Notes under the pieces: generated by a model | Databases searched by the model: none | What the model was told of the DNA's origin: nothing | Seen by the model: the letters and a program-made list of their open reading frames with translations, nothing else | Made by a program: the position numbers and the translations under genes | Virus record (IMG/VR): IMGVR_UViG_3300037248_000024 | Span: 1 to 64,000 of that record | Reading direction: 5' to 3' (one strand) | Source of the DNA: a virus | Length of the DNA stretch: 64,000 bases | In this document: positions 1 through 62,183 of the stretch, in pieces | Position numbering within the stretch: the first letter of the stretch is position 1 | How the letters are laid out: each line of letters starts with the position of its first letter

Positions 1-1
1 C

Positions 2-916
2 GATGACGATGCCGCCGCCGCTCGTGCCGCCGCTGAGATCGCGGGGCTTCGCCGCCAGACCGGAGAGGCCGAACGCCGCGCCGCCGAGGCGGAAACCGCG
101 CGACACAATGCCGATGCCGCCAGACTGGACGCGGAACGCCGCGCCACAGCCGCCGTTCAGGGCGCCGAGGACACTGGCTACACCGCGATCAATACCGCGC
201 TGACCTCGTTGGCCCGCGAGAAAGAAGCCTTGATCGCGGAAGCAAAAACAGCGGGCGAGTCCGGCGACTATGGCCGGGGAGCGGAAATCAGCGCGCGGCT
301 TGGCGAACTCGGCGCCGAAATGCGGGACCTCTCGCGCGGGAAGGACGAACTGGAACGGGAACGCCAGACACGGTTGAACGCGCCGCCCGCGACGGCTCCG
401 GCGCCGCAACCGCCCGCGCCAACCTTCTCTAATCCGGCGGAGGGCGATATTCTTCGTGGTCTCCGGGCGCCGTCGCGGGAAGCCTTCCTCGCCAGCCGAT
501 CCCCGGCGACCCGCGATTTTCTCTACCAGCACCCCGAGTTTTTCACCGATGTCGCCGCGCATCAGCGGATGACGGGTGCGGAATCAATGGCGCGTGGGCG
601 TGGGCTTGCCTTAGACTCGCCAGCCTACTTCGATGCCATCAGGGAAGCAGCCAGCATGAACGCGCCAGCACCAGTAACGTCCCCGCCCACGCAACGGCAG
701 ACTACCGACCGTCCGGCTGACCGCACGGTTCCTCCGGCGGCGCCTCCATCGCGACAGGCGCAGGGGCCGAGCGGTCGGCAAACGAATAACGGCGAGGTTT
801 ATGTGAGCCGTGACGATCAAACGACGGCCGACTGGATGGGAGTCGATTCCGTCGAAATGGTGCAAGAAAGGGAAAGGCTCCGACAAATTGGAGCGTGGCC
901 GTATGCAAGAAGGTAA
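2..916 (+). CDS. Scaffolding-like coiled-coil protein (5' truncated by window edge)
   Basis: Frame 2 is open from the window start (DDDAAAARAAAEIAGLRRQ...) into the 209..916 ORF; A/E/R-rich helices, P-rich linker, position upstream of capsid genes. Confidence 0.55.
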   Translation, partial: DDDAAAARAAAEIAGLRRQTGEAERRAAEAETARHNADAARLDAERRATAAVQGAEDTGYTAINTALTSLAREKEALIAEAKTAGESGDYGRGAEISARLGELGAEMRDLSRGKDELERERQTRLNAPPATAPAPQPPAPTFSNPAEGDILRGLRAPSREAFLASRSPATRDFLYQHPEFFTDVAAHQRMTGAESMARGRGLALDSPAYFDAIREAASMNAPAPVTSPPTQRQTTDRPADRTVPPAAPPSRQAQGPSGRQTNNGEVYVSRDDQTTADWMGVDSVEMVQERERLRQIGAWPYARR

Positions 917-21752: not shown

Positions 21753-24700
21753 GTGCCGGACGGCTGGTCACTGCAACCCGTTGAAGGCGATCCGTTCGCC
21801 GCACAATCAACGCCAGGGTGGAATTTACAGCCGGTCGAGGGCGATCCTTTTGCCGCGCCTCCCGCACAAGCGCCGCTTCATGGCTATGCTGGAACGGATC
21901 AAGCCGCGCATGTCCGTCAGTCTGTTACTCAGGCCGATGTTGACGCGATACCGGATCGGTCGGGGGATTTGAAGGACGCGGCACCCATTACGTCGATGGA
22001 TTCGACGATGACGGAGTATGGGCCGAGCGCGACGACGCCGGGTGTTGATCGTCTGGAACGAAACTATGACGTGACCGCGCGCAACATCGCGGAATCCGCC
22101 CGTCAGGCGTGGCAGGGACAACAACCCTTCATCACGCCTCAGGCGCAGCAATGGCTCCGCGACAAAGGCGTTCCCGACGCGGCGATCTCTACCCTCAACT
22201 CTCCGACGTACGCCCTGGCGGCGATGAACGCCATCATGCGCGGCGGCATCGAGGGGTTCCATTCGCTGTTGGAACCCGTGGTTGGAGAACAGGCGGCCCG
22301 TGACCTCTCCGCGATGCCGGAAGCGTTCCCCTTGGCCGGGCACGAACTCGGTGGGTTGGGTATCCCTGGCGCACCCCGATTGACCCAAGCCGAATCCGCC
22401 GCGATGTCTCAGGCTCAGGATTTCTCGCATCCATTCCTGGCCGGAAACGAAACAGATGCCACGATTGCCGGGCGTCAGATGCGGGAGGAACGCGAGGCGC
22501 TGAACGCACAGATGGAGGCGGCCGCACAGGCGAATCGTCCGAGGCTGACGGGGCCGGGCACTCCGGTGACGGAAGAAGCGCCAGCGGTTTCGCTCGCACC
22601 GGAAGCGCCGCTCCGCACTCCCATCACCCCCGAAGCCGCTGCCGCTACTGAAGCGGGAGAAACTGCTCCAACCTGGAACCTTGAACCCGTCGCGCATGAT
22701 CCGTTCGAGGCACCGCCCTCTCCCGTCGATGAGGCCGCTTCTCAGGCGGTTGAACCGACTCCAGCACAGGCGGAAGTCCCGGTTACCGCTGAATCGCCTT
22801 TATTGGAAGGCGAGGTCCTGCCGCCCGTCCTTCCCTACGCCATGTTCGACCCTCGCGATCTCACACTGGCTCCGGACACGTTCCAATACAAAGCCTCCGA
22901 TGAGCGCGGCGTGACCGGGGCGCTACGGGGCGCCACGCGGTGGGAGTCGGCGCTCGCCAACCCGATCACGGTCTGGCAGGCAAATGACGGAACCAATTAT
23001 GTCGTCAATGGCCATCAGCGCACCGATCTGGCATTGCGGGCGCAAGCCGCCGGTCAACCCGATGTCCAGATGCCAGCGCAGGTATTCCGTGAAGCCGATG
23101 GTTACACGCCGGAATACATGCGGGCGCTTGGCGCCTATCAGAACATTTCCGAGGGTAGCGGCACCGCGATTGATGCCGCCAAGGTGTTGCGGAGCGTTGG
23201 GCAAATCCCGGAGTCCAGGCGGTTGCCAGACTTACCACCGGGCGGCGAACTGGTGCGGCAAGGAACCGCACTGGCGAAACTGTCGCCCGAAGCGTTTGGG
23301 ATGGTCACGAACGAAATCGTGCCAGCCGCTTATGCCGCTCATGTCGGGGACCTGATTTCCGATCCTACCGAACAACTTGGCGCGCTACAGGTGTTGGCGC
23401 GTGCCGAACCGGCGAACTCGGCTCAGGCCAGGATCATGGTCCAGGATGCCGTCAATTCCGGTTTTGCGCGTGGTGTCCAAGGCGGACTGTTTGGCGAAGA
23501 AGCCTTCGCGCATTCGCTGATCCCAGAGCGGGCGCGTGTGCTGGACCAGGCGCTCCGGTCGCTACGCAAAGCCGGGGGCATCTATCGTGCCGCCGTCGAG
23601 GGCGAAGAACCTTTGACTTCCGCCGGGAATACCCTAAATCGTGAAGGGAATATTCAGGCGAGAACCGAAAATGGCCGACTTCTCGACATCCTCCAACGAG
23701 ACGCCACCACCCGAGGGCCAATCTCCGACGCCCTTTCACGGGCAGCAACCGATGTCGCCAGCGGCAAGCCAGTCGCCGGGGCATCCTCTCGCTTCCTCTC
23801 CAAAGCTCGGCAAATTGTCCGAAGCGGATCGGGAGCGGGCTTACGACCAGGCGATTTATCTCACGGCGTTGAACATCCGGCAGCGTCAGAGGTAGACCCC
23901 GCCGCCGCGTTCCGGGAGGAGCTGGGGCCTGGGTTGTTTGAGTCTCCCGTTCCTTTGTTTTCCCCCGTTGCCCGCGCCGTCGATGGGTTGAAGCAGGCCC
24001 GTGGGACCGGCGAGCAAATGCTGGCGCAGATCACGAAGACGCCAGGGGTTAAACCGGAAGAACTCGCGTGGATGGGATTGCCGGGATGGTTGCGGGATCA
24101 GAAGTCCGTGACGAAGGCGCAGATCGCGGATTTTGTTCGGGCGAATCAGTTGGATGTGAGGGAGGTGACACACCCAAGCGACGAACCGAATCAATTCACA
24201 GTGTCATCCGCCGCCGTGCCTGGAGGCCAGGGCGGAATGGCGAGGTTCAGGACTTACGATGAGGCATTGGCGGAATATTCCAGACGCCGGCAAGAGTATC
24301 CGAATGGATATCACAGCATTATGGAAATGCCGCCAGCAGGCACTCAACCGAAGTATAGCGGCTACACGCTTCCTGGCGGTTCCAATTATCGGGAGTTGCT
24401 GATTACGTTGCCGCCGAAGGCAACGACGCGTGAATCCGAACTGATGCGGGCTGCTGGCGCTCGTTTGCGGGCAGCGGAACAAGCAGAACTTGATGCGAGA
24501 GCGCGCGGCTTCGACGTGACGCGCATGGGCAACCTGACCGATGCGACTGACCGAGCGCGCGCCGCATTCGACCGCGCGCGAGAAGCCGTCAAACAAGCGC
24601 GTGGCCAGGTTTACCGCTCTCCCCACTGGGAAGAACCCAACGTCCTCGCGCATGTGAGATTTGATGAGCGGACCGCGCCGGATGGGGCGCGCGTGCTGAT

Positions 24701-27700
24701 GGTGCATGAGGTGCAATCCGACATGCACCAGGCTGGAAGAAAACGTGGATATTATAACAGCACGAAACCTTGGGAAGTATTCAATCCCGTCGACGGAGCG
24801 CCGGTCGCACGCTTCGCCACCGAAACAGAGGCGCGGGCCGATGCGAGGCGCAGAGGCGACGGATTTGATTTCGCGCGGGGAGACCAAGGCCGCGCCGCCA
24901 ATGCCATCCCCGACGCCCCCTTCAAAACCACATGGCCCGCGCTCGCGATGAAACGTATCATCAAACTCGCGGCGGATAACGGATTCGATCGTGTGGCGTG
25001 GGCGCCGGGAGAAGTGCAGGCGGATCGGTATGATCTGTCGAAACACATCAACCGTCTCGATTACGTTCCGAGCGAAAACACAATCTGGGCATACGATAAA
25101 AATGATCGCATCGCTCATACGATCCGCGATGTCACGCCCGAAAACATGGCGGACAAGATCGGCAAGGAAGCCGCTGAGAAGTTACTGGCGCAACCGGATC
25201 GCGCGCCCGTGACTGGCCCGATTCATGAAGGGCGGATGTGGAAGCGTCTTGAAGGCGCGGACTTGAAGGTGGGCGGCGAAGGCATGAAAACCTTCTATGA
25301 CAAAATGCTGCCAGCCGAAGTGAATAAGATCACGGGGCGGTTTGGCGCGAAGGTGGGGACGAGTGAAATAGCCACACACGACAAAGGGCCAGAAGGTGCG
25401 TGGATAGTTGAGCCGCCGGATCGTTCATGGCAACAGCGATTCAATACAGAGCAAGATGCAGAAGAATGGGCTAGACTTTCAGCGCGAGGATTTGGTCTCA
25501 CTCCGGAGGATATGACGGCAACGTTTGTTGGTAAGCCAGTTCTGCAACCCGTCCACTCCCTCGACATAACCCCCCGTCTTCGTTCCGCCGTCCAGTCCGA
25601 GGGGTTGGGGTTGTTCGCCGGTCGTCGCCTCCCCGCCCCACCACCCGCTGGCCAGGACCTCTTCGGCACCACCCGTGTCGCGTCAGCCCAGCGCACCCCA
25701 GAACCCACGATCCGCACCGATCAACGCCAGGCCGTCATGCCGGGTATGGAACCGTCAGCGATCCAGGCGCAGGCCGCACGGGATAACGCCCCGCCAAAAT
25801 CAAACCAACTCGCACCGAATGAGGGATTGTTCGCGCGCCAAGAACCCGTGCAGCCGCAACTCCCCACACGCACGTCCCGCTACCTCAACACCTCCCCCTT
25901 CACCGACGAACTCCACGAAGCCCCGCTCACTGGCCACGAAGCCGCCGCCGATTGGGTGTTCAACAGAGGCCGAGACACCGGACACGAACACGTCGCCGTG
26001 GTCGATAACCGCACCGGAGAGATTATCCATGCCGGAACCAGCGGCCTCGCGGATGAAGTCAAATGGAAGGGCGATAATGGCACTGATCTGCCGCCCGACA
26101 GCCTGACGATCCACCACAACCACCCCAACGGGTCCGCGCTGTCTGGACCTGACATCGGGATGCTGACAAATCCCGCGATCAGTCATGTCGTCGCGCATGG
26201 GGCAAATGGAACGACGACCGTTGCCTCTCTGGTCCCGAAGTGGAAACCGGAAACTACGGAGCAGATGGTTCCGTTGTTGCGATCAATTAACAGCGCACGT
26301 TTTCATGCCCACACCATCGCCCGATCTCTGTTGCAAGACCTCGTGAACAAGGACGCCATCTCCGGTCCCGTTGCCGATCTCGCCTATGAAGATGTCACCA
26401 ACCGCTTGCTTCATGCCGGTGGCGTCATCAACTACGCCTCCACGCTCGACCTAGCCGCGCCAATCAAGGCGGCGCTCGCCCCCGTATTGAGGAACCTTGG
26501 CCATGCCGATGCAACACATGATCGATATACCGTCGCCGTTCCGCCCGAGGAACGAACAGCAAGCCTTCCTGCGCCGGTTGCTGGCGATGCCGGAGAAGTC
26601 GCCCGAAATCCAGGACGCGATCAGAACGGTGCGGGCGAATCTGGCACCTCTGGGGAACGCCGCGGAGGCGGTGAGGGGGTTGAAGGGGGCGAGGCCACCC
26701 AAGGCAGCCTGAGCGCGGGTGAACCGCTAACCCCCGCCCAACGCGCCGTCCTCGCGCATAACTCCCGCAATGGTCCGTTGCCGCCACGCGAGATGCCGAA
26801 CCTGGTCGAGCAAGGGCCACCGAAACCGCCCAGAGAAGCGCGCGCCAGCCCCAGCCCAAGCGACGAACTCCCCCTCCGCGAACCGCCACAACCCGCCCAG
26901 GGGCACAACGGTGGTCCGCCGATGCCGCCCGATTCCCTATGGCCGCCGGATCAGCAGCCGCCGAAACGCCCACCGCCACCGCCGGAGATCGAGGCGGCAC
27001 GCATTACGGCGCCAGCCGCCACGAAAAACCTGAACCCCGTCGAGAAGTTGACGATCTTTCCGCAGACCCTCGCCAATCTCGACAATATGTCGGCGCGGCT
27101 TTGGAACTCGTGGCAGGCGCGCGAACGGACGGAGAGCACGAACGCCGCCGAACTGCGCGGCATTATACAGCCGAACTTTCTGAAACTATCGAAACCGGAT
27201 CGCCTCAAGGTGGCCGGAGCGCTGGAAATAGCGCGCATCGAAGGCGCGGAAAGTCTGGTCGAAAATCCGGACGGCACGATCACCGCGCACAACGGTTCCA
27301 TCCCGCACGCCAACTGGTCGAAGGTGGGCGACAGCATCCAACTCACCCCACAGCAAACCGCAGCCTATCACGAGGCCGTGCAACTTGGTCGCGATCAATG
27401 GACGATGCTGCAACGCGCGGCGGCGAAACGATATGGCTGGGATGGCGCCCTTGATCCAGCCGCCATACGCGCCGAAGCGCAGTCACGCGGCGAGCCGGGT
27501 GACTATCATCGGCTGAACCGTTTGGCTGACCTCTTGGACGTGATGCGGTCAAACCAGCAGGAAATCTACTTTCCCATGCAGCGGTTCGGATCGTATTTCA
27601 TCGCGATCCGTCCAAAGGCCGGAGAAGGCGTCATCGAAAATCTCGGTGGTCATCCGCCCCTGGCGTGGTTCGAGACCGTCGAAAAGCCAGCATTCCAGGA

Positions 27701-29759
27701 TTTGCTTGGGGCAACACGAGGCGCGGTTTCGGTTCAGGCGCGCGCGGCGAAACGAATCGCGGAACTGGAAAAAGATTTCCCGCCGGATAAATTCGACTAT
27801 CAGCACGGCGACTTCGCGCGGACCCCACAACTCCTGCGCCAACTCAATATTCCCGCCGTCGAAAAACTGTTCATGTTGATGGAGAACAAGGTCAAGGCCG
27901 GGATGACCGACGCCGTGATGCGCGGCGATAACCCGCCGACCACGAAGCAAGGTATTCGTGAGGAAGCGAAGAACCGTTATGATGCGTTACACGGGTCCAC
28001 ACTGGAAGCATTTTATGATGCGCTGTTCGAGGAACTGAAGTCGGGATATCGGCGTCGAGCAAAGGTTGTGCCTGGTTACTCCCAAAATTTTGATAGGGCC
28101 ATCAGCAGCCATCTCTATCAGATCGCTCGCAATGCCGCCGACACGGTTCACCGCGATAGTATCGAGTCAGACTATCAGAACATCCAGGATTATCATTCCC
28201 ACCAGAACGTCAAAAACTATTGGCGTGACTGGCGTGCTTATCAGGAAGACCCCGGATCGCCGTTGTCTCGCGCGGCGGCGACGATGAACCAGATCGGATT
28301 CGCCTACATGCTGGGGATGAATCCCTCGTCCACCATGATCATCGCGTCCCACATGCCGATGACGGCGGCGCCCGTGCTGTCGGTTGGGGTTGGACCTCGC
28401 GTGGCGGTTCCGGCGCTGGCACGCGGCCTGCGGTCGGCTTATGGCGCGCTGAAATTCGACACTGTTCATGGTGGCCAGATTGACCTTGAAAAGGCGATGG
28501 CGGGGATGCCGCCGGAGAAGCAGGCGTTTCTTCGTAAAATGGCGCAGGAGGGGCGCTTGGCTGCTGTCGGCACCCATGACATGGCGGCGCTAAACGATAA
28601 ACTCGCTCCTTTATTCCATGATCATGCCGATCTGGCGCGGCGTGCCATGGAGATCGCGACCTCGAATGTTCACGCCGTCGATCAGGCGAACCGGTTCGCC
28701 GTGGCCTCGGCGGCGTGGGACATCGCCTCCAATCCGGCGCACTTCAACGCCGCGGCAGCGCCGCTGATGCGGCACAATGCCGCCTTCCGCGAAATGGTCG
28801 CCCGCGAGATGGGCCTGTCGCCCGAGTCCTACGGTCGCTTCATGCTGTCCAGGGCCGCGTTCGATTGGGGGAAAGCGAATCAGGCGCCGATCATGCGCGG
28901 GCCTCTGGGCCAACTGATGTTCGCGCTGCATGGGTTCCAGACCCGGTATCTCTCGACCGCGTTCAACCTGATGAAGAACAGTGGACCGGAAGGAAGGCTT
29001 GGATTCTACCTCATGATGGCGGCGTTGTTCGCGGGCGCCGGGGCATTTGGACTGCCGTTCTCTCAGGATGCGTTGAAGGGGGCGGATGAGGTTTACAAGC
29101 ATTTTACCGGACGTGATCCCGCGCTGAAATTCAAAATCCACGACTTCATCCAGGATCATGGCTTTGGCGAGGCTGGCGCTGATATTCTCCTTGATGGCGC
29201 GGCCTCTTATGGGACCGGCATCAATCTTGGTTCTCGCATCGGATTTGGCGATGTCCTGCAACGGGAGTTCGAGAGCACCAATGTTCTCGGCACGATCCCG
29301 TCCATAGCATGGAATGCCTATTCAGGGGCATCCCTGCGATACGAAAGTGGTCAACCAGCGGCGGCGGTCGCGGCGGAAGCGGTCCCGGCGGCACTTCGTG
29401 GACCGCTGCGCGCGCTCGCCGCCTCGCAACAAGGGATCGTCAGTCGTCAAGGCATCGAACAGGTTCCCCCGGAAAATATCAGCAAAGCCGATATCGCCAA
29501 GATCGCGGCGGGATTTCAGCCTCTGGTCGCACAAAAACGCGCGGAAGAAACCCAGCGCTATATCGCCGCCCGGTCTCCCGACGCATGGCGCGACATGATC
29601 AGGAATGGCCAACAGGCCGAAGCCATCAAACAGATGAAAGCGGCCGGGTGGACGCCGGGTCGCGTCGAGGGCTTCATCTTCCAGGCCCATCGTCCTCCCG
29701 GTCCTGGCGTTCAGTTCAGGAATTTCGAACGCAACCGAACCGTTGCCCCGCCCCCCTGA
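21753..29759 (+). CDS. Large polyvalent internal virion protein (ParB-like, EVQSD domain, JAB/MPN, PLxRFG)
   Basis: 2668 aa; VVNGHQR (about 23000), HEVQSDMHQ (about 24710), HHNHPNGSALSGPD (about 26110), YFPMQRFGSYF (about 27570). Confidence 0.8.
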   Translation: MPDGWSLQPVEGDPFAAQSTPGWNLQPVEGDPFAAPPAQAPLHGYAGTDQAAHVRQSVTQADVDAIPDRSGDLKDAAPITSMDSTMTEYGPSATTPGVDRLERNYDVTARNIAESARQAWQGQQPFITPQAQQWLRDKGVPDAAISTLNSPTYALAAMNAIMRGGIEGFHSLLEPVVGEQAARDLSAMPEAFPLAGHELGGLGIPGAPRLTQAESAAMSQAQDFSHPFLAGNETDATIAGRQMREEREALNAQMEAAAQANRPRLTGPGTPVTEEAPAVSLAPEAPLRTPITPEAAAATEAGETAPTWNLEPVAHDPFEAPPSPVDEAASQAVEPTPAQAEVPVTAESPLLEGEVLPPVLPYAMFDPRDLTLAPDTFQYKASDERGVTGALRGATRWESALANPITVWQANDGTNYVVNGHQRTDLALRAQAAGQPDVQMPAQVFREADGYTPEYMRALGAYQNISEGSGTAIDAAKVLRSVGQIPESRRLPDLPPGGELVRQGTALAKLSPEAFGMVTNEIVPAAYAAHVGDLISDPTEQLGALQVLARAEPANSAQARIMVQDAVNSGFARGVQGGLFGEEAFAHSLIPERARVLDQALRSLRKAGGIYRAAVEGEEPLTSAGNTLNREGNIQARTENGRLLDILQRDATTRGPISDALSRAATDVASGKPVAGASSRFLSKARQIVRSGSGAGLRPGDLSHGVEHPAASEVDPAAAFREELGPGLFESPVPLFSPVARAVDGLKQARGTGEQMLAQITKTPGVKPEELAWMGLPGWLRDQKSVTKAQIADFVRANQLDVREVTHPSDEPNQFTVSSAAVPGGQGGMARFRTYDEALAEYSRRRQEYPNGYHSIMEMPPAGTQPKYSGYTLPGGSNYRELLITLPPKATTRESELMRAAGARLRAAEQAELDARARGFDVTRMGNLTDATDRARAAFDRAREAVKQARGQVYRSPHWEEPNVLAHVRFDERTAPDGARVLMVHEVQSDMHQAGRKRGYYNSTKPWEVFNPVDGAPVARFATETEARADARRRGDGFDFARGDQGRAANAIPDAPFKTTWPALAMKRIIKLAADNGFDRVAWAPGEVQADRYDLSKHINRLDYVPSENTIWAYDKNDRIAHTIRDVTPENMADKIGKEAAEKLLAQPDRAPVTGPIHEGRMWKRLEGADLKVGGEGMKTFYDKMLPAEVNKITGRFGAKVGTSEIATHDKGPEGAWIVEPPDRSWQQRFNTEQDAEEWARLSARGFGLTPEDMTATFVGKPVLQPVHSLDITPRLRSAVQSEGLGLFAGRRLPAPPPAGQDLFGTTRVASAQRTPEPTIRTDQRQAVMPGMEPSAIQAQAARDNAPPKSNQLAPNEGLFARQEPVQPQLPTRTSRYLNTSPFTDELHEAPLTGHEAAADWVFNRGRDTGHEHVAVVDNRTGEIIHAGTSGLADEVKWKGDNGTDLPPDSLTIHHNHPNGSALSGPDIGMLTNPAISHVVAHGANGTTTVASLVPKWKPETTEQMVPLLRSINSARFHAHTIARSLLQDLVNKDAISGPVADLAYEDVTNRLLHAGGVINYASTLDLAAPIKAALAPVLRNLGHADATHDRYTVAVPPEERTASLPAPVAGDAGEVARNPGRDQNGAGESGTSGERRGGGEGVEGGEATQGSLSAGEPLTPAQRAVLAHNSRNGPLPPREMPNLVEQGPPKPPREARASPSPSDELPLREPPQPAQGHNGGPPMPPDSLWPPDQQPPKRPPPPPEIEAARITAPAATKNLNPVEKLTIFPQTLANLDNMSARLWNSWQARERTESTNAAELRGIIQPNFLKLSKPDRLKVAGALEIARIEGAESLVENPDGTITAHNGSIPHANWSKVGDSIQLTPQQTAAYHEAVQLGRDQWTMLQRAAAKRYGWDGALDPAAIRAEAQSRGEPGDYHRLNRLADLLDVMRSNQQEIYFPMQRFGSYFIAIRPKAGEGVIENLGGHPPLAWFETVEKPAFQDLLGATRGAVSVQARAAKRIAELEKDFPPDKFDYQHGDFARTPQLLRQLNIPAVEKLFMLMENKVKAGMTDAVMRGDNPPTTKQGIREEAKNRYDALHGSTLEAFYDALFEELKSGYRRRAKVVPGYSQNFDRAISSHLYQIARNAADTVHRDSIESDYQNIQDYHSHQNVKNYWRDWRAYQEDPGSPLSRAAATMNQIGFAYMLGMNPSSTMIIASHMPMTAAPVLSVGVGPRVAVPALARGLRSAYGALKFDTVHGGQIDLEKAMAGMPPEKQAFLRKMAQEGRLAAVGTHDMAALNDKLAPLFHDHADLARRAMEIATSNVHAVDQANRFAVASAAWDIASNPAHFNAAAAPLMRHNAAFREMVAREMGLSPESYGRFMLSRAAFDWGKANQAPIMRGPLGQLMFALHGFQTRYLSTAFNLMKNSGPEGRLGFYLMMAALFAGAGAFGLPFSQDALKGADEVYKHFTGRDPALKFKIHDFIQDHGFGEAGADILLDGAASYGTGINLGSRIGFGDVLQREFESTNVLGTIPSIAWNAYSGASLRYESGQPAAAVAAEAVPAALRGPLRALAASQQGIVSRQGIEQVPPENISKADIAKIAAGFQPLVAQKRAEETQRYIAARSPDAWRDMIRNGQQAEAIKQMKAAGWTPGRVEGFIFQAHRPPGPGVQFRNFERNRTVAPPP

Positions 29760-36162: not shown

Positions 36163-38262
36163 TCAGAAAGTGACTTTGAGTGTGCGAGAGAACGCCCCCT
36201 TGACGCGGGCGATGACGTGGTTTCGTTGCGTTGACGAAAAGCCGAGGCCCGAGAGTTGGTTCACGGTCTCGTCCGTCCGCATCTTCGCGCCGACCATTTC
36301 CAGAACCTTGCGGTGTTGGTCGAGATCGGCGCGGAGAAACTCATTGTAGAAACCGCGCGCCGTGCCGTCGTTCTGGCAACCATCCAGCATGAAGAAATAG
36401 TGCTTGTTTCCGACGCCATGACCGTCCCAATGGTTCGGAGAAAGCATGGCGACGGTCACGCGGTGGAAGGCTTCGGTGTCGATGGACCAGACCTTGCGCG
36501 ATACCGTGGTCATCGGGAGTGGACTGATTACGGTCAGGTTTCCGTTCTTGTAGTGAAGTTCCGCCACCACGACGCGTTCGCCTTGCCGCAACGCCTTGGG
36601 ATAGGCGAAGCGATGAACTGACCCCTTCCAGTCAATCTCCGCCTCGAAACCAACATCGGCGGTTTCTATCTTGGCGTATTGGTGGACGAACAGATTGTAA
36701 GTTCCTTCCGCCATACGATGCGCGGAGCCATAGAAGATATTCTCGACTGGTTCGCGCGTGCCGCGCCCAGGCGAACCACCACCAGCATTCATGTCCACGT
36801 CAAGTTGGCCACCGAGGCGAGATGGGCCTTTGTTCGCAAAGTGGATTTCGTTTCGGTCCGGCTCGACCATGTGAAAATCCAGGTCATCGAAATTCGACCA
36901 CGCCAACCGGCAACACAGATCGCCCGACACATTGCCTCCGGCCTTCTTCACGCGCTCCCGAATGGAATCCGCGAAGTCGCCGTTATAGGACCACGAAAAG
37001 CGGTTGTCCCATTTGAACAACGCTGCGGCCGACGCGTCGGCTGGCGCGATCAGAGACACCAGATTGCCGACGTGACGATTCTCCACCATGACTTCAATCG
37101 ATTCCGCCTTCGGAACGACATCCCCCAAAAACTTCTCAATGCCGATCTCTTCGACTTTATCGAAGGTCTTGGGCTTAACCGATGCCGTCGCGGCGAGGTC
37201 ATCGAACACGCCGCCGCCTGACATCGCCTTTCTGGCGTTGCGATCCGCGAACAGGATGTTGTTCACCGTGATATCGGTCAGGCGCGCGTAGCGGCGTTCC
37301 AACGCGGAAGTCAGGCCGAGTTCCGCGACAGTCGCTTTGGCGCGCTCGATCATCGCCTTGGTGACAAGCGCGGTGGGACGCTTGTAATTCGCGGGCGCGA
37401 CCATCGCCTCGAACTTCCGAACGGCACCTTCCATATCTTCGCCAGCGGAAAAGTCGATCAGCAACTGGCCGATGGATGTGTTTCGGATTTTGGAGACCGA
37501 GGCCGGGAGTTCCCCGATTTTCAGCCACACGAAATTGTCGCGATCTTCCGCCGCCAGCCTGTCGAAGGCGATCTTTTCCTGGCGGAACGTCGTCACGGCA
37601 TGGCGATGTTCCTCGCCGCGATAGAGTGAGTTCTGGCCGATCAGTTCGAGAACGGTATCGGCGGCGTCCATCGTCAGTTCGGTGAGTGAACGCAACAGGA
37701 CATCATGGGCCGCTTTCGAGTCAGACAGGCGTGGACCAATATCCTTTCCCGCGCATACTCGGCTGTTCGGAAGCGTGACGAAGAAATGCTCCCACGCCTT
37801 CACGACACCATCGGTGTCCTCGAAATTCTTGTCGGTCCCGACCTTGGCTTCGGTGTGCAGGAAACGGTTCTCGATGGCGCGTGCCTTGACCAGATCGCAC
37901 ATCGCCGTTGCTACGGCGTCATAGGTCGGATTGCCCGTGTAGATGTCCCAGATTGAGGTTAGTTTGCCGTCAATGATGGCGACCATATCCCCAATGGCGC
38001 GCACGAACTGACGGCAGCACGAACAGTCGTGCTCGGCGCGCTGGCGCATGATCGGGTTGGTGCCGGGCGGGAAACTGGTGAGGTAGGTTGTCCAGAGCGC
38101 GTCTTTCTCAACTCCGGTGCGGAACAATTCGTACGTGGACATGAACCCAAACTGAGCGGCGACGGCGGTTTTGATTTGGTGGAAGCCGGGATGATCCGGA
38201 ATGGTATTCGCCAGCGTTTCAGCTTTCGCGGCGACGGCGCGACGGCCAACGTGAGAGATCAT
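36163..38262 (-). CDS. Large conserved phage protein with HDCSCC motif and YfaP/DUF2135-like domain
   Basis: EHDCSCCRQF; LAWSNFDDLDFH..GGQLDVDMNAG..PVENI; start moved to ATG 38262 because the track start overlaps the tRNA. Confidence 0.7.
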   Translation of the reverse strand: MISHVGRRAVAAKAETLANTIPDHPGFHQIKTAVAAQFGFMSTYELFRTGVEKDALWTTYLTSFPPGTNPIMRQRAEHDCSCCRQFVRAIGDMVAIIDGKLTSIWDIYTGNPTYDAVATAMCDLVKARAIENRFLHTEAKVGTDKNFEDTDGVVKAWEHFFVTLPNSRVCAGKDIGPRLSDSKAAHDVLLRSLTELTMDAADTVLELIGQNSLYRGEEHRHAVTTFRQEKIAFDRLAAEDRDNFVWLKIGELPASVSKIRNTSIGQLLIDFSAGEDMEGAVRKFEAMVAPANYKRPTALVTKAMIERAKATVAELGLTSALERRYARLTDITVNNILFADRNARKAMSGGGVFDDLAATASVKPKTFDKVEEIGIEKFLGDVVPKAESIEVMVENRHVGNLVSLIAPADASAAALFKWDNRFSWSYNGDFADSIRERVKKAGGNVSGDLCCRLAWSNFDDLDFHMVEPDRNEIHFANKGPSRLGGQLDVDMNAGGGSPGRGTREPVENIFYGSAHRMAEGTYNLFVHQYAKIETADVGFEAEIDWKGSVHRFAYPKALRQGERVVVAELHYKNGNLTVISPLPMTTVSRKVWSIDTEAFHRVTVAMLSPNHWDGHGVGNKHYFFMLDGCQNDGTARGFYNEFLRADLDQHRKVLEMVGAKMRTDETVNQLSGLGFSSTQRNHVIARVKGAFSRTLKVTF

Positions 38263-38309
38263 GTTCGTATCCAGCCCCTGAGAACCGCCGAGGACGCGCG
38301 GAGGCAAAA

Positions 38310-38384
38310 TGGTGCCCAACCAAGGATTTGAACCTCGGACCCACGGTTTACAAAACCGTTGCTCTACCCCTGAGCTAGTCGGGC
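38310..38384 (-). tRNA. trnT: tRNA-Thr(UGU)
   Basis: Acceptor GCCCGAC/GTTGGGC, anticodon arm ACGGT-TTTGTAA-ACCGT, GGTTCAAATCC T-arm, encoded CCA. Confidence 0.93.
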
Positions 38385-38387
38385 GTA

Positions 38388-38464
38388 TGGCGCGCCATCC
38401 ACGGCTCGAACGTGGGACCTCCGCTTCCGAAGAGCGGCGCTCTATCCAACTGAGCTAACGGCGC
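38388..38464 (-). tRNA. trnR: tRNA-Arg(UCG)
   Basis: Acceptor GCGCCGT/ATGGCGC, anticodon arm CCGCT-CTTCGGA-AGCGG, GTTCGAGC T-loop, encoded CCA. Confidence 0.9.
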
Positions 38465-38500: not shown

Positions 38501-38606
38501 CTCCAAATCGGACATCCTGTCCAATTATTTTCGGGAACCATGAGTATTTCCCGACCCTACCCCCGCCCCGCCGCCGGGCGCATGGTGCATCAGGAGGGTT
38601 GTGCCA

Positions 38607-38777
38607 ATGTTGCTGATCATCGTGCTGATTCTGTTGTTCGGAGGTCTCGGCGGCGGCTGGTACGGCTATCGTGGCGGATATTACGGCGGCGGCGGATTTG
38701 GCGGCATTGGGTTGCTGGTCCTGTTGCTCGTGCTGTTTCTTCTGTTCGGTGGCGGGATTCATGGGTTGAGGCATTGA
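38607..38777 (+). CDS. DUF3309-like Gly-rich small membrane protein (below ORF-track cutoff)
   Basis: AGGAGG RBS; MLLIIVLILLFGGLGGGWYGYRGGYYGGGGFGGIGLLVLLLVLFLLFG. Confidence 0.7.
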   Translation: MLLIIVLILLFGGLGGGWYGYRGGYYGGGGFGGIGLLVLLLVLFLLFGGGIHGLRH

Positions 38778-39023: not shown

Positions 39024-40052
39024 CTACGGACGATAACCAAGAATGTCAGCCAAATCCGCGCGGGCGCGTGACACGCGGCTTTTCATTGTTCCCACGGGAA
39101 CACCAACCTTTTCCGCCATGTCCTCATAGGACATTGACGATACACCGATCATCAGAAGCGCCTGACGATGTTCAGGACTTAATTTAGCCATGGCGGCTTT
39201 CAGGTCCAGAAATTCCATCCGGCTTTCTTGCGCGGGAGCGACTTTAACCGCCATCGCGTGAACGTCGTCAACGTCCTCGACCTCGCGCCCGCTTTTTCGA
39301 AAGTCGCCGTAATATAGGTTACGAAGAATAGTCATCAGCCATGCGATCATGTTCGATCCGGCCTGAAATGACTCGGCATTCGCCCAGGCTCTCGCTATCG
39401 TATCTTGCACCAGATCGTCAGCACGAGATGAATTCCGGCAGAGCGACATAGCGAAATTCCGTAGACGCGGCATAAGGGACAACATTTCATTTTGGAATTC
39501 CGCCGGAACAGTTGGCGCGATAACAATCTCTTTGGTGGGGTTAGCCAACGCGAGACGTGCAACGGTGGCCTTATTTAGCGTCCCCCTTTTACGGCCAGCG
39601 ATTCCAGTCCGGCGCAACACCCCCCGGAAATCGGACGGCCTATATAAATGAAGGAAAGCGGCGCGCGACTGAACTTTTGATGCTGTTATGTCCGAGCGAC
39701 TAAACGTCAGATTGATCTTATCCGCGATTAAAGCCGGTAAAATTCCAGCGACCCACCCCTCATGTAGGGTCGCATCCATCTCGGCTGTCCATACCTTGCG
39801 CCATGTCGAGAGGAATTCCGCCACCCTCGGCATCGTTGCCTTGCGATGCTGGCAACTTCCTTTGTGTCCCGCCGGTCGTCCACAAGGGCACGGCGGTCGC
39901 GCGACTGCCATCATGTATTTGCGGCATGTCGTCCAGTTGATGCCCGTCCTGACTGATGCCCGATGGTAGGTGACGCCATCCGAGGCTAGGCCACGGAGAA
40001 TGGCGCGCGCGTCTTCTGCCAGCGGTATTCGTCTGCCTCCTAGCGTGCTCAT
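39024..40052 (-). CDS. ECF sigma factor (EcfG/SigT-like) fused to N-terminal HTH, Cys/His motif and GcrA-like HTH
   Basis: Sigma2 LRNFAMSLC..ADDLVQDT..AWLMTILRN; sigma4 MSYEDMAEKVGVPVGTMKSRVSRAR; N-terminal CPCGRPAGHKGSC and WTAEMDATL..W..G..IADKI. Confidence 0.85.
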   Translation of the reverse strand: MSTLGGRRIPLAEDARAILRGLASDGVTYHRASVRTGINWTTCRKYMMAVARPPCPCGRPAGHKGSCQHRKATMPRVAEFLSTWRKVWTAEMDATLHEGWVAGILPALIADKINLTFSRSDITASKVQSRAAFLHLYRPSDFRGVLRRTGIAGRKRGTLNKATVARLALANPTKEIVIAPTVPAEFQNEMLSLMPRLRNFAMSLCRNSSRADDLVQDTIARAWANAESFQAGSNMIAWLMTILRNLYYGDFRKSGREVEDVDDVHAMAVKVAPAQESRMEFLDLKAAMAKLSPEHRQALLMIGVSSMSYEDMAEKVGVPVGTMKSRVSRARADLADILGYRP

Positions 40053-40057
40053 GGCTC

Positions 40058-40105
40058 ATTATCCCGTCGGACCCGTTGACAGTCAATCCCGTCCTACCGT
40101 ATAAC
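40058..40105. promoter_or_regulatory. Bidirectional promoter with overlapping -35 boxes (palindrome TTGACAGTCAA)
   Basis: Plus: TTGACA-N18-TATAAC-N6-ATG(40112). Minus: TTGACT-N17-GATAAT-N5-ATG(40052). Confidence 0.7.
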
Positions 40106-40111
40106 CCCGCC

Positions 40112-40273
40112 ATGGCCAAGCCGAAGGTCCTGGGAGACCGTATCACCGTGCGACTGCCGACCGGAACGCTCGCGGCGATCAAGGCTTCGTTGAAGCCGGA
40201 GGAAACCATGCAGGGCAAGTTGCAGGCCGTGATCGTTCGCCTCGCTACCCGCGGCCAGGCCACCGCCGCGTGA
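40112..40273 (+). CDS. Small RHH/Arc-like regulator, leaderless
   Basis: DRITVRLPTGTLAAIKA strand-helix pattern. Confidence 0.55.
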   Translation: MAKPKVLGDRITVRLPTGTLAAIKASLKPEETMQGKLQAVIVRLATRGQATAA

Positions 40274-50735: not shown

Positions 50736-52220
50736 TCATCCCTCCGTCTCCGGCCGTCCGGCGTGGGGGCAGTCGATGCGTGTGCAGTGACCATAGTGTT
50801 TGCACGCTAATTGATATTTGCAATCCCCCGGCGGCCACGCGGGTTCCGGTGCCGGGGCGAAGGCGGCAGCCTTACGCTTCAGTGCCTCCCAAGCAAAACG
50901 GTCGTCAATCTCTTCGACCTTTATGCAATTCCCGTCTTTTGTCATAGCAACAAAAAGGAAGCGTACTTTGTTGATATGATAATGGTTCATTCCGACGATA
51001 GACCAGTCTTTAAGTTCCGGATAGTTCCACGGAGCCGTCCACTCCGGCGCCTTCGCCCCCGCGTCCACCACGTTGCCCAACATAACATCCAGCGCGGAAT
51101 GCGCGGAGATGTGTCCCGCGTCGACGGCATCAAGATCGCGCAAATGATTCGTCGTCCACAAATCCCTCTCCTCCCGCGTGAGATCGTGTGGCGCCAAAGC
51201 GTGCATGATATCGAACCGTTCGGGTGATTTATATTTCGCGGCGGCGACTCTGAGCGCGTCGTTTGGTTCTGGTGGATTTTCCAGTGCGGCGATGAAAGCC
51301 GCGCTGTCGCGTGGGCTGAGTGTCCAGTTGGTTCCGGTGACACGGGCGGTGTCGGCGGTCGAACCGAGGTCAGCATGTGGTTGAGCAAACATAGGATCGG
51401 GGTTGCGCGGTTCATTCCCCGTCAAGGAGGTCTTGGTGTAATGACACTCTCCATCCCGCAGGCAATTCGCACGCTGATCACAACCGTCCTGAACACCGCA
51501 GCGAGACCAATCTACCGGCAGTTGTTGCTGTACGTGCGCTTTGGTCGAACCGAGGTCGCCGGCGAGGGGGTCGTCACCGGGCGTATATCTGGAAGAAATA
51601 CAACCATCGTAGCCATAGGTCCAACCTTCGCCAGGAATCGCATCTGGACCGCTCATTCTGAGCCATTGGTCGGGAGTGATTGGTTTCATGCCAGGAATTA
51701 CCAACGCGTCGAATAAAGCCTGTGTAAATCGAGGGGGCTTCGTGCACTCAAGATAAGCCGCCGCCGCCTTGTGCGTACTTTGCTGTAAATCGTCATTGAT
51801 CGCACTCGGCCAAAAGTCCACGCATTCTTGCAGCAGCTTTCTCAGTCGTGCAATTTCGATCAGGTATAGAGGTGGTTCATAGTTTCGTCCGCGCGCACGG
51901 TCGGCGGCGGCGAGGGCTGTTTCTACGGCCGCATGGGGAATGTCAAAATTAGAGACATGGAAACGGTTTCTTCGCAACCAGATGTAAAGTTCTGACCGCG
52001 CCGCCTCAACCGCGTCGCCCGGCACGGCGGACGTGGCGGGTTCGCGGCCGCGCATGGCGGCTTCACACCGGAGCCAACCGCAAATAAAATTACGCGCGGC
52101 GATAGAATTATCGTCCGCCCCTGGATTGAACAGTCGCCAAGCGGCCAACGCTTTCATTTCTCGCGCGTCACTTGAGCTCGGCGTCATTCGTCCGGTCATG
52201 TCCTGGGGTCCTTGTGTCAT
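50736..52220 (-). CDS. Mosaic hypothetical protein containing a DUF1778 (TacA/AtaR) C-terminal-like segment
   Basis: TLSPRDSAAFIAALENPPEPNDALRVAAAKY at about 51230-51340; two Cys clusters. Confidence 0.55.
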   Translation of the reverse strand: MTQGPQDMTGRMTPSSSDAREMKALAAWRLFNPGADDNSIAARNFICGWLRCEAAMRGREPATSAVPGDAVEAARSELYIWLRRNRFHVSNFDIPHAAVETALAAADRARGRNYEPPLYLIEIARLRKLLQECVDFWPSAINDDLQQSTHKAAAAYLECTKPPRFTQALFDALVIPGMKPITPDQWLRMSGPDAIPGEGWTYGYDGCISSRYTPGDDPLAGDLGSTKAHVQQQLPVDWSRCGVQDGCDQRANCLRDGECHYTKTSLTGNEPRNPDPMFAQPHADLGSTADTARVTGTNWTLSPRDSAAFIAALENPPEPNDALRVAAAKYKSPERFDIMHALAPHDLTREERDLWTTNHLRDLDAVDAGHISAHSALDVMLGNVVDAGAKAPEWTAPWNYPELKDWSIVGMNHYHINKVRFLFVAMTKDGNCIKVEEIDDRFAWEALKRKAAAFAPAPEPAWPPGDCKYQLACKHYGHCTRIDCPHAGRPETEG

Positions 52221-59084: not shown

Positions 59085-59260
59085 GGTCTGGGCGAGGGCG
59101 CAGATTGACATGCTCTGCTCCTTTCGGATTCAGATTTCCGAAGCTCGACATCAAGCCGTCCTCCGGATGCTTCCTGCTTCGTCCGGTCCTTTAGGAGGAT
59201 GTCCGTCCACAGGCTTCAACGCGCTGTCCGCGCGCCGTAGTATGATGATCGCCGCGTTGG
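59085..59260 (-). ncRNA. Putative TnpB omegaRNA (scaffold ending at ATGTCAA/59105, guide about 59104-59085)
   Basis: Overlaps tnpB 3' end; GGAAATCTGAATCCGAAAGGAGCAGAGCATGTCAA resembles IS200/IS605 right ends; 5' limit is approximate. Confidence 0.6.
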
Positions 59261-60356
59261 TGTCGGCATTGGCTTCGTATCCGCATCCTGTGCAGACAAA
59301 CCGTACCTGATCCTGTCGGCTTCGTGCATCCACCACGCCACATTCAGCGCACGTCTGGCTTGTGTATGCGGCTGGAACTTCGATGAGCCTGCCACCACGA
59401 TCCGCCAGCTTGTAGGCCAGCATGGTCCGGAAACCGCCCCATCCCTGATCCAGAATGGCACGGTTCAGCGCTGCCTTTTGCCGGACCATCCTGCCCGGTT
59501 CGGCTGCGGTGCCTTTCGCAGATGCGGTCATGTTCCGCACCTTCAATGCCTCCAAAACGACAGCGCCGTGGTTCTTGGCGATGTCAGTTGAAACCTTATG
59601 GAGGAAGTTCTTACGGGCGTTCGCCACCCGCATCTGTATCTTCGCCACGCGGCGGATGGCCTTGCGGCGATTGGACGAACCGCGCTTCTTGCGGCTCAGG
59701 TCGCGTTGCGCCTTCCGGAGCGCCCGGAGCGCCTTTTTGCCGCAGTTCACCGGGGCGATGTTGACGCCGTTGGACAACGCGGCGAATACAGCGACGCCGC
59801 GATCAATTCCGACCGCTGGCAGAGTGGATGGCGCTGGATCAACTATCTTGTGCTGCCATTGAACGGAGACGCGCCATTGTCCCGCGTGGCGTGAGACAGT
59901 CGCGTTGCGAATGTCTCCAACAACGCGGCGCCAACCTCGAAATGAAATCCACCCTAGTTTTGGCAGTTTAATACGTCCAGAAGAGTTGCCGGTGCGTTCA
60001 ATCCTAAAGGCCTCCGGGTGCGGAAACCGAAAGCTATCATTCAACCCCTTCTTACGCGGCGTTGGGTACCCGGAACGACTCTTCCACCAGTTCTGATAGG
60101 CTTTGTTGAGGTCCATCATCACCTGATGCAACGCATCCGCCGGTACATCCCTAATCCAATCAACTTGCCTTCGAAGCATGGTGACTTCACGGCACTGACT
60201 GGCAAAATTGATCCCCCGTCCGGCGCGGCCAAAAGTCCGCCGCTGTTCCAAGGCGAGGTTGTAGACGAACCGGCACGCACCCGCGAATCGCGCCATTTTC
60301 TGCGATTGCTCGGATGTCGGGTAGAGCCGATAGGTGTTGGCCTTGCGAATAATCAT
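59151..60356 (-). CDS. tnpB: TnpB RNA-guided endonuclease (IS200/IS605 family), no tnpA
   Basis: YRLYPT..GACRFVYN; RuvC VGIDRG, VLEAL, NADTNAA; Zn ribbon TSQTCAECG..CTGCG. Confidence 0.92.
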   Translation of the reverse strand: MIIRKANTYRLYPTSEQSQKMARFAGACRFVYNLALEQRRTFGRAGRGINFASQCREVTMLRRQVDWIRDVPADALHQVMMDLNKAYQNWWKSRSGYPTPRKKGLNDSFRFPHPEAFRIERTGNSSGRIKLPKLGWISFRGWRRVVGDIRNATVSRHAGQWRVSVQWQHKIVDPAPSTLPAVGIDRGVAVFAALSNGVNIAPVNCGKKALRALRKAQRDLSRKKRGSSNRRKAIRRVAKIQMRVANARKNFLHKVSTDIAKNHGAVVLEALKVRNMTASAKGTAAEPGRMVRQKAALNRAILDQGWGGFRTMLAYKLADRGGRLIEVPAAYTSQTCAECGVVDARSRQDQVRFVCTGCGYEANADTNAAIIILRRADSALKPVDGHPPKGPDEAGSIRRTA

Positions 60357-61750: not shown

Positions 61751-61965
61751 TGCCCACCGGCACCGTCAAATGGTACAGTTCCGAGAAGGGTTACGGCTTC
61801 ATTTCCCCGGACAACAACACCGGCGGACGGGACCATTTTGTTCATCGCACCGCCCTGGCCCGCGCCAACATCGCCACGCTCCATGAAGGCCAGCGCGTCG
61901 AATACGAACTGGAACGCGACGACAGGACGGGGAAGGTGGCGGCGGTGGGGTTGAGGGTGGTGTGA
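61750..61965 (+). CDS. cspA: Cold-shock domain protein
   Basis: GTVKWYSSEKGYGFISPD..DHFVH..LHEGQRVEYE. Confidence 0.9.
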   Translation: MPTGTVKWYSSEKGYGFISPDNNTGGRDHFVHRTALARANIATLHEGQRVEYELERDDRTGKVAAVGLRVV

Positions 61966-62183
61966 TGGGCGCTTCCGAATATCTTCGCGGCAATACCAAT
62001 CGTTACCGGCCGAATCATAAGCCGGAGACTATTGGTTATGCCCGGCATCTTTGGGATCATGATTGGTCGGCGTCGGAAATAGCGGCGCAGATCGAACTCA
62101 GCCGGAACGCGATTTGCGCCATCGCGAGACGGAATGATTTCGCGGAGCGCGGGTCTCCGATAAAGAGACGAACCAATGGGTAA
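61965..62183 (+). CDS. GcrA-like N-terminal HTH protein
   Basis: LWDHDWSASEIAAQIELSRNAICAIARR..RGSPIK. Confidence 0.7.
   Translation: MGASEYLRGNTNRYRPNHKPETIGYARHLWDHDWSASEIAAQIELSRNAICAIARRNDFAERGSPIKRRTNG

Follow-up and report, generated by a model that had tools for sequence, protein, structure and literature searches.

The fusion gene and its control region

The subject of this study is a gene of the virus record IMGVR_UViG_3300037248_000024, which comprises 98,050 bp as a whole and belongs to a phage, presumably of alphaproteobacteria; the window, as the stretch of DNA that was analysed is called here, consists of its first 64 kb (64,000 nucleotides), and features beyond it are given as genome positions. 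The gene lies on the minus strand at 39024..40052, stop codon counted, and encodes a 342-aa protein (P0001) in which a sigma factor of the EcfG type is preceded by a module with two predicted helix-turn-helix (HTH) domains and a putative zinc knuckle. In Alphaproteobacteria, a class with plant symbionts, methylotrophs, acetic acid bacteria and pathogens among its members, the master switch for stress consists of EcfG, NepR and PhyR.

A sigma-70-type promoter of the sequence TTGACT-N17-GATAAT is found directly upstream, at 40058..40086 on the minus strand, with 10 of 12 consensus positions matched. It ends 5 nt before the ATG at 40052, so that the mRNA is predicted to be leaderless and to start at or next to the start codon. 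The same layout occurs at four other operon starts of the phage (40076, 60425, 67377 and 70113, all on the plus strand), the first of which belongs to the divergent partner of the fusion gene. Both promoters are housed in the 59-bp control region 40053-40111, where the palindrome TTGACAGTCAA supplies the -35 elements of the two opposing directions. The partner (40076..40273, plus strand) follows the pattern TTGACA-N18-TATAAC-N6-ATG, with a -35 within TTGACAGTCAA and again a predicted leaderless mRNA, and leads into a small gene at 40112-40273 that heads an operon with HTH_3 and Phage_lysozyme genes downstream. The product of this small gene matched nothing in Pfam or PHROG, and by eye it looks like a ribbon-helix-helix protein.

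The start of the fusion gene is called differently by different procedures. The IMG call (P0002) has 266 aa and begins at an internal GTG (V77), and our own crude codon-score caller, with which the gene calls for the phage were made, favoured M74. These calls are what speaks for the view that only a form of 266-269 aa is real, or that two neighbouring genes were joined by a sequencing or assembly error, a view that we consider barely credible. The junction between the two halves (residues 168-183) lies far downstream of V77 and M74, so the short form would be a fusion as well, and it contains neither a homopolymer run nor any other frameshift-prone run, alternative-frame continuity or an internal ribosome-binding site. 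An identical 342-aa protein, called at full length, is present on an independently assembled Logan contig of 97,953 bp; this speaks strongly against the sequence error that the sequence-only reading had named as a possible source of the fusion. Moreover, a 420-aa metagenomic protein (P0004) aligns at residues 18-167 with 63% identity, and 23 further, more distant relatives align unbroken across the stretch upstream of V77, which makes 24 proteins that run continuously through the first HTH, the knuckle and the second HTH. The long form is thus fixed by the promoter placed exactly at ATG 40052, the N-terminal conservation, the Logan contig and the clean junction.

The C-terminal half is an EcfG-type sigma factor

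The C-terminal half (residues 184-342) has the minimal architecture of an extracytoplasmic function (ECF) sigma factor, with sigma-2 and sigma-4 only, and 183 extra residues precede it. Pfam assigns Sigma70_r2 (PF04542) to residues 193-256, Sigma70_r4_2 (PF08281) to 283-334 and PhyR_sigma2 (PF22029) to 194-243, while the best NCBIfam models for this half stayed under their equivalog cut-offs; the phage sigma family phrog_1740 also matches the fusion protein (E 1e-32). Sigma domain 2, as delimited by PF04542, PF22029 and the alignment, extends over residues 184-256 (39285..39503, minus strand) and is followed by a linker at residues 257-279 (39216..39284, minus strand), in which the predicted local distance difference test (pLDDT) score of the structure model is low at 255-279. 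Sigma domain 4 occupies residues 280-338 (39039..39215, minus strand) with PF08281; the helix that recognises the -35 element, VGTMKSRVSRAR, does not differ from the EcfG consensus.

Across 103 cellular relatives, 62 alignment columns are at least 90% conserved, and the phage sigma keeps 53 of them, including the whole sigma-4 recognition helix. Seven of the nine deviating positions fall in sigma-4 at residues 284-316, outside the DNA-reading helix. Five residues, N199, Q297, S306, M312 and V316, are absent from all 103 cellular EcfGs at their positions, and four of these are in sigma-4 (297-316); such substitutions are compatible with an altered binding of a partner, namely NepR. The nearest cellular proteins share 50-58% identity with the phage sigma, and the loci that were inspected carry Pfam-verified nepR and phyR genes beside them. 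Among PDB sequences the best match is 5uxx_A (E 3e-43, 150 bits), with SigH following as the next ECF at 74 bits. 5UXX is probably the EcfG-NepR complex of Bartonella quintana, as the neighbouring entries 5uxv, 5uxw and 4qic, which are PhyR, suggest.

A maximum-likelihood tree was calculated from the phage sigma together with all genes of the sigma-70 family that are present in two genomes of the candidate host clade (G001 and G002). In this tree the phage sigma is placed inside a clade of four EcfGs verified by nepR/phyR synteny and of Methylobacterium EcfG paralogues. The stem of the clade has a support of 94/99 and a length of 1.31, all other ECFs of the two genomes fall outside, and the placement was reproduced after viral sequences had been added. 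The suggestion that an ECF sigma close to EcfG forms the C-terminus is therefore borne out by Pfam, by the tree and by the conserved columns, and we assign the sigma half, from its sequence, as a complete EcfG-type (ECF15-type) sigma. In isolated phages, a tblastn search returned only ECF sigmas of 28-36% identity, such as rpoE of phiM9.

The conservation of the DNA-reading residues also bears on the idea that the protein is a cI-like switch repressor or activator, whose head would bind the palindromic -35 region and other operators, and whose sigma would be a decoy for NepR or core RNA polymerase that does not initiate. The divergent arrangement of a leaderless gene with an operon of small-gene, HTH and lysis functions, with -35 boxes that overlap in TTGACAGTCAA, is what such a switch could look like. 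A decoy has no need of the 53 kept positions, the DNA-reading ones included, however, and neither an integrase nor a resolvase was found in the phage, which gives no sign of lysogeny. We regard a switch of this kind as improbable.

The N-terminal module combines two HTH folds with a knuckle

The N-terminal half, searched whole and in pieces, had no match in Pfam, even at E<10, and neither NCBIfam nor PHROG gave an informative match. A phmmer search of 1.84 billion representative proteins revealed only 52 relatives of the module (residues 1-170). These share an HTH, a knuckle of the form C-x-C-G-R-P-x-G-H-x-G-x-C, a second helical unit that opens with W-T-x-E, and a basic tail. AlphaFold2, run on the family alignment, returned a confident model of the module with a mean pLDDT of 86.

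The first HTH (HTH1; residues ~10-48; 39909..40025, minus strand) is of the three-helix resolvase/transposase/Tc3 type, with modelled helices at 13-24, 29-36 and 40-47. Its structural matches include 2r0q_C (Z 6.0) and 1tc3_C (Z 5.7), and on the profile level it matches the HTHs of IstA and Sleeping Beauty. It is followed by the knuckle Cys55-x-Cys57-G-R-P-x-G-His63-x-G-x-Cys67 (39852..39890, minus strand; pLDDT 86-93), a putative zinc site. The four residues C55, C57, H63 and C67 are invariant in alignments of 24 and of 33 relatives, and the knuckle would presumably bind a metal, probably zinc. Its spacing, C-x-C-x5-H-x3-C, does not match the H-x3-C-x2-C motif of ZAS anti-sigma factors.

The second HTH (HTH2; residues 81-136; 39645..39812, minus strand) is a GcrA/Myb-like DNA-binding domain with the signature W88-T-x-E...IA...R-A-x-x-L-x-L. 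A structure search independent of Foldseek against 48,161 PDB chains placed the DNA-binding domain of Caulobacter GcrA (5yiu_A) first, with Z 7.1, 49 of 49 residues aligned and 26% identity, and Foldseek superposed HTH2 on the same domain in 5yiv_A with a template modelling (TM) score of 0.89 and a root-mean-square deviation of 1.0 A. Next after GcrA came Myb/SANT and small-terminase HTHs at Z 5.7-6.6. The fold class is thus certain, and a specific kinship with GcrA, judged from the model, is only moderately separated from the other matches. On the profile level, hhalign aligned the HTH2 family with a profile of six genuine alphaproteobacterial GcrAs at a probability of 96.5%, in the register W-T-x-E...L...W..G...IA, against 17% for sigma region 4, 0.1% for sigma region 2 and <1% for column shuffles. 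The GcrA model PF07750 did not match the fusion protein even at E<10, and its six-frame search of the genome matched another gene; on the same unit of the relative P0128 it reached 26.4 bits, with the cut-off at 26.9. As was read from the sequence at the outset, an HTH, a zinc-type knuckle and a GcrA-type HTH are therefore present, as judged by the modelled fold, the invariant Cys and His residues, and the structural and profile matches.

A separate 72-aa GcrA-like open reading frame, also sub-threshold (PF07750, 21.5 bits; phrog_16311), is located at 61965-62183 on the plus strand, so that the phage has, besides the GcrA-type HTH that is part of the sigma fusion, a second one that stands free.

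A basic helical tail that is conserved in the family, R-P...GR.RG..N...R, completes the module (residues 137-170; 39543..39644, minus strand; helices 142-149 and 161-170). The fusion linker behind it (residues 171-183; 39504..39542, minus strand) is predicted to be disordered, with pLDDT <50 at 171-181. In the full-length AlphaFold2 model the domains are folded and the linkers disordered, the predicted TM score (pTM) is 0.29, and the head is not packed on sigma-2 or sigma-4; the prediction is thus of a head that hangs on the sigma by a tether, with no docking between them.

This model is of relevance for the notion that the head is a cis-regulatory device, i.e. an on-board anti-sigma-like or zinc/redox-sensing domain that keeps the sigma inactive until a signal arrives. 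Extensions of ECF sigmas are generally thought to be regulatory, although those at the N-terminus are unstudied (PMC8103513), the Cys2-His-Cys site is invariant, and a separate anti-sigma (NepR) was not found in the phage. Against this stand the lack of docking in a model of low pTM with a disordered linker, the nature of the head as two DNA-binding HTH folds, the occurrence of the head without a sigma in about 50 proteins, and the difference of the knuckle from the ZAS motif. An on-board inhibitor or sensor is hence doubtful in our view, and its chances are small.

Relatives of the module and the rarity of the fusion

The architecture search proposed along with the sequence-only reading showed that, among the 52 module relatives, only the fusion protein carries sigma domains. 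Most of the others end in a short conserved tail, P0004 ends in additional HTHs, and P0128, P0129 and P0136 have Cys-rich ends whose tails align in register with GcrA C-termini, if weakly (14% probability). The same fusion was not found when viral contigs were searched with the full protein. With a tighter alignment of the module, one IMG/VR contig and six metagenome contigs were matched, all without a sigma, and a sample of 401 genomes of alphaproteobacteria did not yield the module. A protein-language atlas and a viral fold library gave weak leads only. The joining of sigma and module is a real domain architecture that is unique so far.

The unit of HTH plus knuckle is found elsewhere in metagenomic proteins, singly or in about six tandem copies. 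The latter case is a 761-aa protein (L104:634-2919, plus strand) that consists of about six tandem units of an HTH and C-x-C-G-R-P-x-G-H-x-G-x-C, and this six-fold repetition indicates that knuckle and HTH are a repeatable DNA-binding building block. The rare unit would in its own right be a DNA-binding module that has not been described before.

EcfG-like sigmas as such are not restricted to this phage. Other viral contigs carry them, some with nepR directly upstream and others standalone, none with the N-terminal module; the pairs with nepR may be host flanks or phage-borne pairs. Standalone genes on IMG/VR contigs are located at L144:3989-4468, L145:3983-4477 and L147:3989-4648, in operon-like overlap with genes for a DnaB helicase, a primosomal protein, a ParB-like protein and a DNA methyltransferase. 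Their products share 42% identity with the phage sigma and branch just outside the core EcfG clade. In the literature, no paper was found that describes a phage-borne EcfG.

Cognate promoters and partners in the phage

EcfG promoters have the form AAC/GGAAC-N16-17-CGTT (PMC8103513). The motif AAC/GGAAC-N15-18-CGTT was searched in 50 upstream intergenic regions of the phage, exactly, with one mismatch in the -35 and as the minimal AAC...CGTT, and no match was obtained, while 1.6 were expected by chance for the minimal form. The exact matches in the whole genome (n=7) are all intragenic. A match at 133-157 was considered and rejected, because an open reading frame runs through the 127-bp overlap there, which makes it intragenic too. 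GGAAC upstream of genes is not enriched (7 observed vs 8.9 expected), and a promoter motif shared within the phage could not be detected above controls by de novo dyad counts or by an all-against-all blast of 49 intergenic regions. The recognisable promoters of the phage are sigma-70-like. The fusion gene itself is no exception, as it is under TTGACT-N17-GATAAT and has no AAC-N15-18-CGTT upstream, so it lacks the autoregulation that is a hallmark of EcfG. As to partners, a search of the 98-kb phage with the NepR model PF18557 gave no match at E<=1, and PhyR was not noticed either, though no direct search was made for it.

The only over-represented intergenic word is GTAGGAACA. It was rejected as a promoter word, because its copies form one origin-like iteron array and do not mark operon starts: all eight copies in the genome lie inside an array at genome positions 77,651-77,994, beyond the window. 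There, the unit (G)GTAGG(A/C)ACA, 9-11 nt long, is repeated about 13 times in both orientations, adjoining an A/T-rich tract and directly downstream of a VapE-like gene of the primase/helicase type (PF05272, 253 bits). The array is probably a replication origin. Its unit contains GGAAC, the -35 core of EcfG promoters, with no CGTT 16-17 nt after it, and the fusion protein may be among the proteins that bind the array. There is the possibility that the fusion binds this array of GGAAC-containing iterons and thereby couples transcription to replication.

These results have to be set against the view that the fusion is a middle or late phage sigma, whose head reads phage-specific sites, replaces or supplements -35 recognition and so fires non-canonical phage promoters. 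In its favour, the fusion is the phage's only sigma (exactly one sigma-factor gene is present), it has an early-type sigma-70 promoter, as a temporal switch would have, and it matches the phage sigma family phrog_1740. A PF00940 search gave no T7-like RNA polymerase, but its control matched nowhere either. In addition, relatives have the head joined to other C-terminal effector parts, which suggests a portable targeting unit, and EcfG paralogues with undefined, non-canonical promoters are known (PMC8103513). The same view is countered by the absence of a repeated promoter-like motif from the 49 intergenic regions, the lack of GGAAC enrichment, DNA-reading residues that are the same as in host EcfG and so argue against a new specificity, and the confinement of the sole enriched intergenic word to the origin-like array, off the operon starts. 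Taken together, we think that a sigma for middle or late phage genes is rather unlikely, but still a strong rival.

A proposed role in the host stress response

The sequence-only reading had offered two roles for the protein, namely a self-targeting sigma that redirects polymerase to phage promoters, or one that switches on or titrates the general stress response of the host. Redirection is left without support by the missing EcfG promoters and the missing shared intergenic motif, and self-targeting in the manner of EcfG autoregulation by the sigma-70 promoter. We infer that the second role fits better, because the DNA-reading residues are canonical, no NepR was found in the phage and the promoter is of the early sigma-70 type; with no cognate phage promoters found, a host stress circuit is also the better fit when compared with late-gene transcription. 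We therefore favour, tentatively and as something quite possible, that the fusion takes over the NepR-gated general stress response of the host, either by standing in for its sigma free of the gate or by acting as a sponge for NepR.

In this scheme, the fusion would be expressed early by host sigma-70 from a leaderless mRNA, and its sigma half would bind the core RNA polymerase of the host and read the GGAAC/CGTT general-stress promoters. It could do so as a surrogate of EcfG that is insensitive to NepR, or, as a second option, it could soak up NepR and so free the EcfG of the host. The contribution of the DNA-binding head would be additional anchoring or a choice of targets. A variant in which the holoenzyme is held by the head at selected sites, and in which the EcfG-type sigma is thereby freed from the NepR/PhyR switch, so that an ungated self-targeting transcription device results, appears unlikely. 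If true, the device would do by a covalent link what GcrA does without one, since GcrA holds a similar HTH to sigma-70 non-covalently.

Several points weigh against a takeover of the host stress response. To our knowledge, nearly all characterised phage sigmas transcribe phage genes. The standalone EcfG-like sigmas that lie in replication modules of other viral contigs hint at a phage-internal role of such sigmas, and what a phage would gain from switching on the stress response is speculative. It is also possible that EcfG-type promoters of the phage are inside genes or non-canonical, and EcfG2 of R. etli demonstrates that the motifs used by an EcfG paralogue can be different ones, which are not yet defined (PMC8103513).

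Whatever its role, the fusion can be regarded as a natural experiment on three questions: whether a virus can override the NepR gate, how a DNA-binding domain before sigma-2 affects promoter choice, and whether the principle of GcrA, a small HTH that steers RNA polymerase via a sigma, is modular and can be hard-wired to another sigma. The second question touches an acknowledged blank, namely how extensions at the N-terminus of ECF sigmas work (PMC8103513). The fusion is also a potential compact and orthogonal part for synthetic transcription control.

Neighbouring genes and other features of the phage genome

Convergent with the fusion gene, a Gly-rich small protein with two transmembrane segments is encoded at 38604..38777 on the plus strand. 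A DUF3309-like gene had been placed beside the fusion; the neighbour is indeed there, whereas its likeness to DUF3309 (PF11752) is only sub-threshold, with 13.9 bits (for the gene as delimited at 38604-38750) vs a cut-off of 22.3 and E 0.007, and a further Pfam search of the protein gave no match at E<0.01. The minus-strand region 36163-38464 contains tRNA-Arg(TCG) and tRNA-Thr(TGT), then on the same strand the gene of a 718-aa protein (phrog_1735, unknown function, E 1e-265), and then a 131-aa open reading frame.

The genome carries an exact 127-bp repeat at window positions 1-127 and genome positions 97,924-98,050. Its interpretation as a direct terminal repeat and physical terminus was rejected in favour of a circular-assembly overlap, as a coding frame crosses the junction, which also implies that the contig is a circularly permuted whole genome. 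No relative was found by megablast of 20 kb against phage genomes. The phage has two tRNAs, one lysozyme gene and a long plus-strand structural block with a major head protein, a virion structural protein, a 1160-aa SLT-domain protein and a giant protein of 2668 aa (21753-29759, plus strand), in which no Pfam domain was found at E<0.001. An A/T-rich divergent region that heads the plus-strand block into the structural genes contains GTTTGTGC twice, 24 nt apart, at genome positions 85,582 and 85,606 (beyond the window), and this may be an operator pair.

On the minus strand, a 401-aa protein of the TnpB/IS605 OrfB type is encoded at 59151-60356, with the domains HTH_OrfB_IS605, OrfB_IS605 and a Cas12f1-like TNB, and a 487-aa open reading frame at 50736-52199 resembles the antitoxin TacA1 over a short segment, residues 293-324 (PF08681, 26.1 bits). 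Beyond the window, genome positions 66,454-67,338 encode an N6/N4 DNA methyltransferase, which matches PF01555 with 82 bits.

Comparison with known systems

With the cellular EcfG/SigT/RpoE2 proteins the phage sigma shares the layout of sigma-2 and sigma-4, the clade and the -35 helix at the 50-58% identity given above. It differs in being encoded by a phage, in lacking adjacent nepR and phyR genes, in its sigma-70 promoter, in the 183-aa N-terminal DNA-binding extension and in the five substitutions, four of which lie in sigma-4, that none of the 103 cellular homologues shows. A canonical EcfG controls its own gene through an AAC...CGTT promoter (PMC8103513). By sequence and phylogeny the fusion is hence an EcfG, but two hallmarks of the context, namely the partnership with NepR/PhyR and autoregulation, do not apply to it.

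With GcrA, the likeness lies in residues 81-136, which superpose on its DNA-binding domain (PDB 5YIU/5YIV), and in the sequence of a DNA-binding head, a flexible linker and a part that engages RNA polymerase; any resemblance in working is an analogy only. The C-terminal domain by which GcrA interacts with sigma-70 (region 2) is absent, and an ECF sigma is there instead. The fusion furthermore has an extra HTH and the Cys2-His-Cys knuckle before the GcrA-like domain, and it stays under the PF07750 threshold. GcrA recognises GANTC methylated by CcrM. The phage has 237 GANTC sites vs ~490 expected, a depletion of about 2-fold, and intergenic DNA shows no enrichment.

PhyR is likewise built from an EcfG-type fold and one further domain, its target is the NepR switch, and the PhyR_sigma2 model matches the fusion. 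In PhyR, however, the sigma-like domain is degenerate and joined C-terminally to a receiver; the phage protein has an intact sigma, no receiver and an N-terminal fusion. ECFs with N-terminal extensions, first noted in Planctomycetes, also have extra sequence before sigma-2 and no neighbouring anti-sigma gene (PMC8103513); their extensions are uncharacterised, whereas that of the fusion has recognisable DNA-binding folds and sits on an ECF15-type sigma in a phage. The sigmas of L144, L145 and L147 are phage-borne too, but standalone and without the module. The sporulation-type sigmas of Bacillus phages are reported to be close phage-borne copies of an alternative sigma of the host, with the potential to reprogramme its stress or dormancy regulon in place of phage genes (PMC9429907; bioRxiv 10.1101/2021.11.12.468384). 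They belong to another sigma family and another host clade, and no DNA-binding module is fused to them. In concept, the nearest precedent for the fusion is such a phage-borne copy of a developmental sigma by which the programme of the host is altered (PMC9429907).

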